Sequence record: NC_070909
Source of the DNA: Escherichia phage Cartapus
Length of the DNA: 33,368 nucleotides
Direction: 5' to 3' (one strand)
The notes under the pieces are model-generated. The model made no database searches and was not told where the DNA came from. It saw only the letters and a list, made by a program, of their open reading frames with translations. Position numbers and translations under genes: made by a program. Of this stretch, positions 11,711 to 15,661 are shown one piece after another (the stretch's first letter is position 1; every line of letters begins with the position of its first letter).

Positions 11711-12308
11711 TCTGCTGCCACCGGGTTCAACTTCACTGGAGCGCCGACTGGCGCAAACCTGTAGCGGGATTTCTGATCTGCAGGTGCCGCTGCGTGACTT
11801 GTGGAATCCGGCTACCTGTCCGGTCAGCTTCCTGCCTTATCTCGCCTGGGCGTTCTCTGTGGATCGCTGGGACGAGGGCTGGACAGAAAGCGTCAAACGC
11901 CAGGTAGTGAAGGATGCTTTTTATATTCATCAGCATAAAGGAACTACCAGTGCCGTGCGGCGGGTGGTGGAACCGTTCGGATTCCTGATCCGCATTATTG
12001 AGTGGTGGCAGACCGGAGAAACACCGGGCACGTTTCGCCTGGATATCGGCGTGCAGGACCAGGGCATCACTGAAGATACCTATCTGGAACTTGAGCGGCT
12101 GATAAGCGATGCCAAACCATGTAGCCGTCACATGATCGGCATGTCCATCAATCTGCAGACCAGCGGTCCGCATTGGGTGGGGGCCGCCAGCTATCTTGGC
12201 GAAGAAATCACGATCTATCCGTATATCAACGAAACAATTATTTCCGGCGGCACCGCGCATGAAGGCGGGGCGGTCCATGTTATTGACACAATGAGAGTGA
12301 ATCCATGA
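11703..12308 (+). CDS. I: baseplate protein (P2 gpI-like)
   Basis: 201-aa ORF, GGAGG RBS, overlapping the J stop and the H start. Confidence 0.85.
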
Positions 12309-13726
12309 GCACAAAATTTTATACCCTGCTGACGGATATTGGCGCGGCGAAACTTGCCAGCGCCGCCGCGCTCGGTGTGCCGCTAAAAATTACCCATATG
12401 GCGGTGGGCGATGGCGGCGGAACATTGCCAACGCCGGACGCCAAGCAGACAGCATTGGTAAATGAGAAACGCCGGGCTGCGCTGAATATGCTCTATATCG
12501 ACCCGCAGAACAGCAGCCAGATTATTGCTGAACAGGTGATCCCTGAAAACGAGGGCGGTTGGTGGATACGTGAAGTGGGCCTGTTTGATGAGTCCGGGGC
12601 ATTGATTGCCGTGGGCAACTGCCCGGAAAGCTATAAGCCGCAACTGGCTGAAGGCAGCGGGCGTACCCAGACCGTGCGCATGGTGCTGATTACCAGCAGC
12701 ACGGACAATATCACCCTGAAAATCGACCCTGCCGTAGTGCTGGCAACCCGCAAGTATGTGGATGACAAGGTACTGGAGCTGAAGGTGTACGTGGATGATC
12801 AGATGGCAAAACATCTTGCCGCACCGGACCCGCATTCACAGTATGCACCCAAAGAAAGTCCGACGTTTACCGGGACACCAAAAGCGCCAACTCCAGCGGC
12901 AGGGAATAACACCACGCAGGTTGCGACCACCGCGTTTGTTCAGGCGGCACTGACGGCTCTTATTAATGGTGCGCCAGCCACGCTGGACACGCTGAAAGAA
13001 ATAGCCGCAGCCATTAACAATGATCCGAATTTCAGTACCACCATTAACAATGCGCTGGCACTGAAAGCGCCGTTGTCGAGTCCGGCACTCACCGGAACGC
13101 CAACAGCCCCCACTGCTGCACAGTCGGTCAACAATACACAGATTGCCACCACGGCTTTTGTGAAATCGGCGATTGCAGCAATGGTAGGTTCTGCACCTGC
13201 GGCACTGGATACACTGAACGAACTGGCGTCGGCGTTGGGGAATGATCCGAACTTTGCCACGACAATGCTTAATGCGCTGGCAGGTAAACAACCGCTGGAC
13301 AATACGCTGACTAATTTGAGTGGAAAGGATGTCGCTGGTCTTCTCGCATACCTTGGTTTGGGAGAAGCGGCAAAACGGGACGTGGGAACAGGGGAAAATC
13401 AGATACCGGATATGGTTTCATTTAGTGGTGTGAGGGATTTTTATGGAAAACAACTTTTGCCAGGAGGGTTGATACTCCAGTGGCTGACGATTCCATCAAG
13501 TGCAGCAGTCAAAGCTGTAACACTGGATAATGGTAATTATCAGCTGTCAGGCTATAAATGGCCCCAGTCATTTGGTGTCCTGTTTGCTGTGTTTGCCACA
13601 AAAGTTTCTGGCTCGACTAACGAAGCATACGCAATCTCAGTTAATCGTCACTCTACCGATGTAATTGTCACCTGGAATGCCCGTAAGGCTGATGATGTCC
13701 ATATTTTAGGAATTGGGAAATTATGA
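12305..13726 (+). CDS. H: tail fibre protein (P2 gpH-like) with constant N-terminal part and invertible C-terminal part
   Basis: 473-aa ORF. The 25-bp crossover repeat lies inside it at 13353-13377; the C-terminal 116 aa are encoded inside the invertible segment. Confidence 0.85.
13353..13377. repeat. left 25-bp inverted repeat (recombination site of the tail-fibre inversion module)
   Basis: TTGGTTTGGGAGAAGCGGCAAAACG; its exact reverse complement is at 14862-14886. Confidence 0.8.
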
Positions 13727-14142
13727 AAATGAAATGGTCCCCATCTGTTCAGGGATTTTTCTCTGAAAACAACAGCGATATTCCCGATGATGCTTTCGAT
13801 ATTGAAGATGCTCTTTATTATGAACTTATGAATGGTCAGAGTACGGGGAAAATTATTATCAATAGCCCGGATAACTACCCTGTACTTACTGAATATCCAG
13901 CGAAGACACATGAACAGGAAATAGCTGAAGCGGAGGGAATGAAAAATATACTTATTGAACAGGCCAACGATTATATGAACAGTAAACAATGGCCTGGTAA
14001 AGCGGCTATTGGCCGGCTGAAAGGTGAGGAACTGGCACAATATAATTTGTGGCTGGATTACCTGGACGCACTGGAACTGGTCGATACTTCCGGTGCGCCA
14101 GATATTGAATGGCCTACACCTCCGGTAACTCAGGCCAGCTAA
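13723..14142 (+). CDS. G: tail fibre assembly chaperone (gpG/Tfa-like)
   Basis: 139-aa ORF directly after H, with an acidic N-terminus and conserved-looking C-terminal ...DIEWPTPP. Confidence 0.75.
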
Positions 14143-14509
14143 TCTCAGGAGCCGTCGAAGTGTCGACGGCTTTTACTTCTTTTTTGTAGTCCATCCAGGC
14201 AGATAGTTTTTCTTTATCTGTACTGCTGATATCACCAAGCATTAATTCCACCCGCCAGTCAGCTGTGACATTATCGGCATGAGCAAGTAACTGCATTCGC
14301 TGATTTTCAGCACGTGCGACATAATCAATCGCCGGAGATTTCAGTACCGGTAAACCATTTTCATCTGACGTGATTAATTTCCCCCCTTCCTGCTGTCCGG
14401 CAATTAATTCATTGTATAAGTCTGTACTTATCTCAACAATGTCAGCAGGCATGTCGCTGTTTATACCATCAAAGAAAAAACCATTAGTCGATTTTGAGAA
14501 ATAAATCAT
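14114..14509 (-). CDS. alternative tail fibre assembly chaperone (Tfa-like), inverted orientation
   Basis: Minus-strand ORF with ATG at 14509 (MIYFSKSTNGFFFDG...) ending in ...[10 protein letters not shown], parallel to the plus-strand Tfa. The 3-prime ends of the two Tfa genes overlap by 29 nt. Confidence 0.7.
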   Translation of the reverse strand: MIYFSKSTNGFFFDGINSDMPADIVEISTDLYNELIAGQQEGGKLITSDENGLPVLKSPAIDYVARAENQRMQLLAHADNVTADWRVELMLGDISSTDKEKLSAWMDYKKEVKAVDTSTAPEISWPELPEV

Positions 14510-14517
14510 AGATATAC

Positions 14518-14861
14518 CTATACACCGATTGCTACCCAAAAACAGGACCTTTCATATTTGACAATTTCTCCCTGAGATATACCGCCAACAATTATATAGA
14601 ACTGTGATTTGCTGATATCAGAACAGTTCGCTATGCCCATTGCAGATATACCAGCCACCGACGTTGTATGTGGCACAGCCAACAGCGCAAGTGAACGATT
14701 TGGGAATGTTACCGGGTAAGTCACCGTATAGTTTGATGCTCCACTGACAATACCCCACTGAATAATCAGACCTGAAGGGAGTTTTTGAAAACCCGTTGAT
14801 GAAAGTGAACTGGCAAACGCCGCCATATCCGGAATTTGGTTTTGCTCGTTACCCACATTTC
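14518..14861 (-). CDS. alternative tail-fibre C-terminal segment (no own start; would be fused to constant H after inversion)
   Basis: Minus-strand reading frame open across the right inverted repeat. Encodes ...LGEAAKRNVGNEQNQIPDM..., paralleling the H segment ...[19 protein letters not shown]... Confidence 0.6.
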
Positions 14862-14886
14862 GTTTTGCCGCTTCTCCCAAACCAAC
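14862..14886. repeat. right 25-bp inverted repeat (recombination site)
   Basis: CGTTTTGCCGCTTCTCCCAAACCAA, the exact reverse complement of 13353-13377. Confidence 0.8.
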
Positions 14887-14952
14887 GTTTATGAAAATGC
14901 AGAGATAACGGCTAACTGGCATCATCTCCGGTTTTTATTCAGGGGGATGATC

Positions 14953-15519
14953 ATGCTTATTGGCTATGTACGCGTGTCAACAAATGACCAGAACACCGAT
15001 TTGCAACGTAATGCACTGAACTGCGCGGGATGTGAGCGGATTTTTGAGGATAAAATCAGTGGCACTAAGTCCGACAGACCGGGGCTGAAAAAGCTGCTCA
15101 GGACACTATCGGCAGGAGACACGCTGGTTGTCTGGAAGCTGGACAGGTTGGGGCGCAGTATGCGGCATCTTGTTACGCTGATAGAGGAGTTGCGCCAGCG
15201 TGGTGTGAATTTCCGAAGCCTGACTGACAGTATTGATACCAGTACCCCAATGGGCCGTTTCTTTTTTCATGTCATGGGTGCCCTGGCTGAAATGGAACGC
15301 GAACTGATAGTTGAACGTACCAGGGCAGGGCTGGCTGCAGCTCGTGCCAAAGGCAGAGTAGGTGGACGCCGTCCTAAGTTGACCACCGAACAGTGGGCAC
15401 AGATTGGGCGTTTACTCGAGGCCGGAGAATCAAGACAGCGTATTGCACTGATTTTTGATGTGGGTGTTTCCACAATTTATAGAAAATTTCCGGCAAATAA
15501 GAGTAATGAATCCCCCTGA
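14953..15519 (+). CDS. serine DNA invertase (Gin/Pin/Hin/Cin family)
   Basis: Track ORF 14836-15519. The ATG at 14953 gives MLIGYVRVSTNDQNTDLQRNAL..., close to the Pin/Gin N-terminus with the catalytic Ser in YVRVS. 188 aa, next to the inverted-repeat-bounded segment. Confidence 0.9.
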   Translation: MLIGYVRVSTNDQNTDLQRNALNCAGCERIFEDKISGTKSDRPGLKKLLRTLSAGDTLVVWKLDRLGRSMRHLVTLIEELRQRGVNFRSLTDSIDTSTPMGRFFFHVMGALAEMERELIVERTRAGLAAARAKGRVGGRRPKLTTEQWAQIGRLLEAGESRQRIALIFDVGVSTIYRKFPANKSNESP

Positions 15520-15567
15520 ATCAGCATTATTTTGATTATCCCTGCAAGTAGACAAATACCGTCATTT

Positions 15568-15585
15568 TGTGTGAATAACGGTACA
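15568..15585. promoter_or_regulatory. TGT-N12-ACA dyad (late promoter element upstream of FI)
   Basis: tgtGTGAATAACGGTaca about 75 nt upstream of the FI start. Shares TGTGTG...GGTACA with the site at 3716. Confidence 0.4.
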
Positions 15586-15661
15586 ACTGCGCTTAGCTGT
15601 TTGTCAGGCACAATCACTTCAACATAGGGCGAAGCCTAATCCAATCAGGAGGTTCGCCACT

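Follow-up and report, generated by a model that had tools for sequence, protein, structure and literature searches.

A probable tail-fibre inversion switch exchanging fibre tip and assembly chaperone in Escherichia phage Cartapus, a P2-like prophage of Escherichia coli LF82

The genome record of Escherichia phage Cartapus (NC_070909; 33,368 nucleotides, analysed over its whole length and hereafter called the window) contains, behind the constant part of the tail-fibre gene H, a 1,529-bp segment (positions 13355–14883, between the core dinucleotides) that carries two fibre tips and two tail-fibre assembly (Tfa) chaperones in opposite directions, with a serine DNA invertase gene directly outside it. 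The segment is present as its reverse complement in E. coli G3, and E. coli isolates N17 and N24 differ by its clean inversion. We consider it very probable (about 0.9) that this module is a functional inversion switch of the Gin/Cin/Pin/Hin type that swaps the fibre tip together with its chaperone. Positions 13000–15660 are 100% identical to the reverse strand of the E. coli LF82 chromosome (NC_011993.1), whose annotation shows a complete P2-type prophage adjoining ssrA; Misson et al. (2023, PMC9928086) described Cartapus as related to P2 and close to Fels-2. The module is an ordinary member of a well-described kind, since tail-fibre inversion in P2-like prophages has already been published.

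The 25-bp sequence TTGGTTTGGGAGAAGCGGCAAAACG occurs once on each strand of the window, at 13353–13377 (+) and at 14861–14885 (−), and these two exact inverted repeats bound the 1.5-kb segment, as a first-pass annotation made from the sequence alone had reported. The left arm spans the core and the inner half-site as well as the coding sequence of a conserved LGLGEAAKR stretch, and the right arm is the copy of the 25-mer on the opposite strand. The 25-bp repeat is embedded in a 75-nt inverted repeat of 79% identity, the longest and best of the whole window. The longest exact inverted repeat of 25 nt compares with a median of 14 nt in mononucleotide shuffles (range 13–22 nt, the upper values of which we suspect to be self-overlapping palindromes), and analytically only about 5e-7 inverted pairs of 25-mers would be expected by chance in a sequence of 33 kb. 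Alignment of the junctions to the annotated boundaries of the Mu G segment and to P1 cixL and cixR, with the 26-bp definition of a hix site (PMC3798978), places the actual crossover in 26-bp sites of the gix/cix type, whose core is TT. The left site, TTCTCGCATACC-TT-GGTTTGGGAGAA, occupies 13341–13366, with crossover at the TT of 13353–13354, and the right site, TTCTCCCAAACC-AA-CGTTTATGAAAA, occupies 14872–14897, with its core AA at 14884–14885. The two sites are inverted relative to each other and consist of imperfect 12-bp half-sites around an identical 2-bp core. The 25-bp repeats start at the central TT and run inward, and therefore correspond to the inner ends of the segment, the outer half-sites being imperfect. 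In the whole window, the family site pattern is matched just twice, and the exact inner half-site likewise has no more than two copies, which makes this a two-state switch and not a shufflon. A shufflon-like multi-site system was rejected on this count; a third match, with three mismatches, was at chance level. A loose regular expression for the sites missed those of Fels-2, which an inverted-repeat search recovered.

The full H open reading frame (ORF; 12305–13726, +) encodes 473 amino acids (aa) and consists of a 350-aa constant part, Hc (12305–13354, +), fused in frame to the tip Hv(+) (13355–13726, +). Hc, which is transcribed from the late V-W-J-I-H-G operon, was recognized by the N-terminal Pfam domain Phage_tail_fib (E = 3e-65) and by synteny with P2, and Hv(+) by a match to the C-terminus of PHROG 2557 (E = 1.5e-35) and a weak match to Gp53-like_C (E = 0.003). 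The gene for a gpG-like chaperone paired with this tip, Tfa(+), follows at 13723–14142 (+; Caudo_TAP, E = 3e-22; PHROG 188). On the opposite strand lie a silent, promoterless alternative tip, Hv'(−) (14518–14883, with the fibre C-terminus extending to about 14885; Gp53-like_C, E = 2e-15), and a silent second chaperone, Tfa'(−) (14114–14509; Caudo_TAP, E = 2e-24). ORFs and Pfam domains thus agree with the earlier claim of one tip and Tfa on one strand and an alternative pair on the other. Both tips match the C-terminal end of one and the same PHROG. Their first 44 aa, with the common stretches LGLGEAAKR, NQIPDM and LPxGLIxQW, show 59% identity, and the remainder cannot be aligned; this bears out the statement that they share LGEAAKR and NQIPDM and then diverge. 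Phage vB_EcoM-613R3 carries a sequence that matches the silent tip at 100% identity, and phage Midge has one that matches it at 67%. The two Tfa proteins are 33% identical (BLASTP), and the 3' ends of their converging genes overlap by 29 nt (14114–14142), exactly as had been noted; the ORF list gives the same positions.

In RefSeq, the silent tip appears as a coding sequence (CDS) of its own, for a "gp53-like domain-containing protein" (WP_015912538.1; 14518–14925, −). The ATG of this CDS falls outside the invertible segment, past the right recombination site, so the entry probably arose by misannotation of a cassette that has no promoter. Within Hc (12950–13300, +), two copies of a motif of about 45 aa are present, as is typical of fibre shaft repeats. 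The 29-nt overlap of the tfa genes is kept in sibling modules that have another partner cassette (L001, 3283–3311; L002, 3627–3655; L011, 2615–2643), and the C-terminal WPxxP motif of each Tfa is encoded antisense to the tail of its partner. The overlap could serve as a joint for the exchange of half-cassettes.

The invertase gene (14953–15519, +; 188 aa) starts 68 bp from the right core, outside the segment, and reads away from it; the corresponding distance in Mu is 67 bp. The protein has the size and architecture of its family (about 190 aa), with an N-terminal resolvase domain (PF00239, E = 2e-53, residues 3–135) and a C-terminal HTH_7 domain (PF02796, E = 1e-15, residues 138–181). It matched PHROG 125, "DNA invertase", at E = 9e-101, and the Gin structures 3UJ3 (Mu Gin, E = 8e-93) and 4M6F at E of about 1e-92 over 184 residues. 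Its identity to Fels-2 Fin (84.9%), P1 Cin (78.0%) and Mu Gin (73.9%) lies above the 60% beyond which characterized members are mutually interchangeable. The proposal of a Gin/Pin/Hin-family serine invertase immediately outside the segment is therefore upheld. Ser9 aligned with Ser9 of Gin, and Y5, R7, S9, D33, R42, D64, R65 and R68 are all present; judged by its catalytic residues, the enzyme appears not to be inactivated, the alternative against which the first-pass annotation had cautioned. RefSeq labels the protein generically as "recombinase family protein". The same module with a frameshifted invertase gene is found in CP019275.1, deposited as "plasmid" p13P477T-2 of E. coli 13P477T (L001, 4461–5019); this 37-kb circular record is a P2-like phage genome, and its module may be a naturally locked variant.

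To model the flip, we set the crossover at the central TT and searched the resulting in-silico construct against 5,426 complete E. coli genomes. In this construct, Hc runs in frame into the second tip, which gives a 471-aa protein, H', and the same 471-aa fused gene is annotated as intact in strains G3 and N24. As a single full-length piece, the flipped construct was found at 100.0% identity over 2661 nt in G3, at 99.9% in FDAARGOS_1372, and at 98.3–98.5% in H15, MS20657, N24 and LD91-1. Altogether, six full-length records are in the flipped orientation and about 11 in the native one. Comparison of three pairs showed that the segment inverts precisely at the sites. G3 and LF82 have an identical invertase protein (WP_000905033.1), and their segments are exact reverse complements, with 0 mismatches in 1,533 nt. 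N17 and N24, two near-isogenic isolates from cerebrospinal fluid, again have 0 mismatches across 8,661 bp, where a clean inversion is the only difference between them. ATCC 8739 has a sibling module in which the same Hv(+)/Tfa(+) cassette is combined with another partner cassette and with an invertase of 98.4% identity; here, a clean inversion of 1,831 bp, likewise with 0 mismatches, distinguishes two independent assemblies. In the ATCC 8739 pair, the identity at the junction extends over 13–14 bp only, starting at the central TT, which places the crossover in the site and counts against exchange by RecA. At the level of the lineage, both orientations therefore exist (LF82 vs G3, N17 vs N24), and not one alone, the result that would have spoken against the first-pass annotation. 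In E. coli Combat13F7, the module occurs both on a separate 45-kb record, in the native orientation of the window, and on the chromosome, where it is flipped.

Inversion by enzymes of this family depends on negative supercoiling and on an enhancer in cis that is bound by Fis, and a putative recombinational enhancer of 63 bp was located at 14975–15037, about 97 bp from the right core. It consists of two 15-mers (14975–14989 and 15023–15037) that match the degenerate Fis consensus of Hübner and Arber, reportedly KNNYRNNWNNYRNNM. Paired Fis sites follow a 48-bp spacing rule. The two matches are 48 bp apart from centre to centre, at nt 23 and 71 of the gene, and the same holds for Mu gin and P1 cin; moreover, the Cin enhancer annotated at nt 19–90 of cin in the P1 record aligns with 14971–15042. 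The hin enhancer is similar, being 65 bp long with a Fis site at each end and lying about 100 bp from hixL (PMC3798978). By chance, a single Fis 15-mer is expected about once per 128 nt, and the window contains three pairs at 48-bp spacing against two expected. The value of the match accordingly lies in its positional conservation, because the 15-mer consensus is weak and the pair count is near expectation. The search for Fis sites in the 5' part of the invertase gene, which had been recommended earlier, thus turned up two matches at the gin and cin positions, whereas the number of pairs does not set them apart in the window. The two-site element is consistent with a Fis enhancer but is not proven to be one.

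Taken together, these features suggest the following mechanism. Dimers of the invertase would bind the two inverted 26-bp sites (13341–13366 and 14872–14897), assisted by host Fis on the enhancer in the 5' end of the invertase gene itself. Cleavage at the central TT/AA and rotation of the strands would then flip the 1.5-kb segment, while Hc and the late promoter lie outside it. In each orientation, Hc is in frame with one of the two different tips of about 120 aa, predicted to bind the receptor, with the matching Tfa directly downstream, and the other tip/chaperone pair would be left promoterless on the opposite strand. A population of lysogens would consequently release two types of virions that differ in receptor specificity. 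We infer the dependence on Fis and the rate of switching in LF82, and the analogy to Mu and P1, together with the complete divergence of the distal tips, suggests that the two orientations differ in host range.

Some observations weigh against this reading. Both LF82 assemblies (NC_011993.1 and NZ_CP082771.1) are in one and the same orientation. A sigma-70 consensus scan revealed no convincing promoter for the invertase gene, and promoter-like matches in the module region were fewer than in shuffled sequences. Constraint on the protein could account for part of the conservation of the Fis matches, because the coding sequence in which they occur is strongly conserved. For the distal 107 aa of the tip that is currently expressed (13403–13723, +), tblastn gave no match at E<=1e-3 in 50,697 phage records, and a relaxed Pfam search of this part yielded only a sub-threshold match to Gp53-like_C. 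The shared orientation of the two independent assemblies and the result of the promoter scan would fit a switch that is real in the lineage but locked or very slow in LF82, which would then release essentially one type of virion. However, the invertase (WP_000905033.1) and the whole 1,533-bp segment of LF82 are identical to those of the oppositely oriented G3, sites and enzyme contain no disabling change, and a consensus assembly shows only the majority orientation. We therefore regard a locked state in LF82 as improbable.

Two further explanations, both of which we consider highly improbable, would detach the inversions from the invertase or from the virion. The inversions between genomes could have arisen by RecA-dependent recombination between the repeats, with the invertase irrelevant, and the 75-nt inverted repeat (79%) with its 25-bp exact core would be available to RecA. 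The identity at the ATCC 8739 junction, on which RecA-mediated inversion was rejected, is nevertheless just 13–14 bp from the central TT, too short for efficient recombination by RecA, and the module contains an intact Gin-family enzyme together with its sites and an enhancer-like element. Alternatively, inversion could benefit the lysogen and not the virion, through a chimeric fibre that blocks the adsorption of other phages or through action of the invertase in trans. H and G are, however, late genes of an intact, virion-producing prophage, and no second target of the invertase was seen in LF82. Judging from P2 biology, neither gene should be expressed in a lysogen. The Cartapus genes found to be expressed above background do not include the fibre genes (PMC9928086). 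A benefit to the lysogen would nonetheless have precedents, since inversion of the P segment of e14 by PinQ (PinQ/StfE2) blocks adsorption of T2 (PMC12529663), and Fin acts in trans on the Salmonella H segment and can replace Hin (PMC4122451); the same cassette pair also lies beside pinE in another type of prophage. The switch of fibre tip and chaperone by the adjacent invertase remains by far the best account of these data.

Production of Cartapus virions was reported to be low-level, and no recipient or propagation strain was found (Misson et al. 2023, PMC9928086). A combined reading, which we offer as speculative and rather unlikely, is that LF82 mostly releases virions with the Hv(+) tip, whose distal 107 aa have no homologue among some 50,000 phages and so might bind an unknown receptor, while a minority with the gp53-like Hv' tip infects other strains; this would explain the missing indicator strain. 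With it might go a role of the tfa overlap as a joint at which half-cassettes are swapped between P2-like prophages and prophages of the Mu-like-tail/e14 type, or else blocking of adsorption at the level of the lysogen, as with PinQ/StfE2.

The surroundings of the module are those of a P2-like phage (Peduoviridae, Fels-2 type). According to the LF82 annotation, compared with P2 and Fels-2, and to Pfam, the gene order is V-W-J-I-H-G ... FI-FII-E-T-U-D, with an H protein that has a tail-collar fibre N-terminal domain and a G-type Caudo_TAP chaperone. In P2 itself, the interval between G and FI is filled by fun(Z), and the placement of the module in the Z/fun slot of P2 was thereby confirmed. The NCBIfam search was uninformative, with zero families above cutoff for all five module proteins. 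Primer JC101 ("Cartapus tail") of PMC9928086 maps to 13200–13219; this article, which named Cartapus, makes no mention of an invertase, inversion or tail fibres. Mentions of LF82 in Rousset 2022 were discarded, as they refer to an unrelated virulent phage, LF82_P8.

In Cartapus, the slot is bounded on the left by a hairpin after tfa(+) and on the right by a TGT-N12-ACA dyad. The strong terminator-like hairpin with its T-run (14147–14174, +), found by a consensus scan only, lies directly after tfa(+), and a P2 terminator sits at the equivalent place; in the present orientation, it likely ends the transcript of the V operon. This hairpin lies inside the coding sequence of tfa', and flipping reverses the direction in which it is read and leaves it without a T-run, so that late transcription in the flipped state might continue towards the invertase gene. 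A weak second hairpin is located between the right site and the start of the invertase gene (14914–14933, +). The dyad (15568–15585, +) lies 94 nt ahead of the start codon of FI, and the annotated P_F activator site of P2 begins 97 nt upstream of FI; the dyad is likely the Ogr-type activator site of the late promoter of the F operon.

In the search with the native region, parts of the query matched 2,786 of the 5,426 complete E. coli genomes. Parts of the module are also shared by 68 phage records, many of which are annotated as "tail fiber assembly protein (x2) / DNA invertase". Klebsiella P2-like phages (KP12, our locus L002, and records OK4903xx-OK4904xx) have a constant fibre part and an invertase that are 96–99% identical to those of Cartapus, together with other cassettes; the values are about 96% for the constant fibre part and, at the protein level, 99.5% for the invertase. 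This pattern points to exchange of invertible tips between genera on a conserved chassis. A cassette pair 99.4% identical to that of Cartapus adjoins pinE in a prophage of E. coli DAM (NZ_CM129523.1; L013, 5715–8157), where it stands behind a short fibre gene; the baseplate of this prophage is Mu-like (gp46/gp47/YmfQ). Both Tfa proteins (WP_000782984.1 and WP_000639074.1) are the same in this prophage and in Cartapus, at a DNA identity of about 99%. The segment as a whole thus moves between tail modules that are unrelated.

The value of these results is mainly local, and the general understanding of invertible host-range switches is unchanged. They provide a corrected annotation for the Cartapus prophage of LF82, a strain associated with Crohn's disease. 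Knowledge of the two fibre states could help to find a propagation host for Cartapus, and is relevant to the engineering of host range with LF82 prophages or P2-like fibres.

Among known systems, the Fels-2 prophage of Salmonella (Felsduovirus) is a close counterpart; it belongs to the same phage group and has, in the same slot, the same order of H, G, inverted G'/H', invertase gene and FI. Its outer half-site and the flank upstream of fin are homologous to the right site of Cartapus, and Fin is the most similar of the three invertases compared (84.9%); Fin is a proven invertase that can replace Hin (PMC4122451). Fels-2 differs in its tip and chaperone cassettes, in its core (GA/TC) and in its tfa genes, which do not overlap. 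Phase variation by inversion was demonstrated by sequencing and PCR in two P2-like prophages of the enteropathogenic E. coli (EPEC) strain E2348/69 (Goldberg 2014, PMC4272514). One of them alternates between two states; the other locus, with three repeats, has four variants, in contrast to the simple arrangement of two sites and two states in Cartapus. More generally, invertases are frequent cargo of the Z/fun hotspot, where they are accompanied by inversion of adjacent genes (iLund4u preprint 2024).

The G segment of Mu, inverted by Gin, has the same layout as the Cartapus module, with Sc outside, [Sv-U / U'-Sv'] inside, and the invertase gene outside and reading away. The consensus of the 26-bp sites and the positions of the Fis-consensus matches in the gene are also the same, and Gin is 73.9% identical to the Cartapus enzyme. 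However, the Mu segment measures 3 kb instead of 1.5 kb, its core is TC and not TT, Sv is unrelated to the tips of about 120 aa in Cartapus, and the tail module of Cartapus is of the P2 type. The C segment of P1, inverted by Cin, shares with Cartapus the TT core and an invertase of 78% identity, and its annotated enhancer aligns with the region of the putative one in Cartapus, but cin reads towards the segment, cixL overlaps the 3' end of cin, and the segment is 4.2 kb long with long inverted repeats. In both Mu and P1, the tfa genes of a pair are separated by a 28-nt gap with a shared hairpin, in contrast to the 29-nt overlap in Cartapus. The P segment of e14, inverted by PinE, is a switch of the same type, but its constant fibre part and tail module are different, and the e14 element of K-12 is defective.

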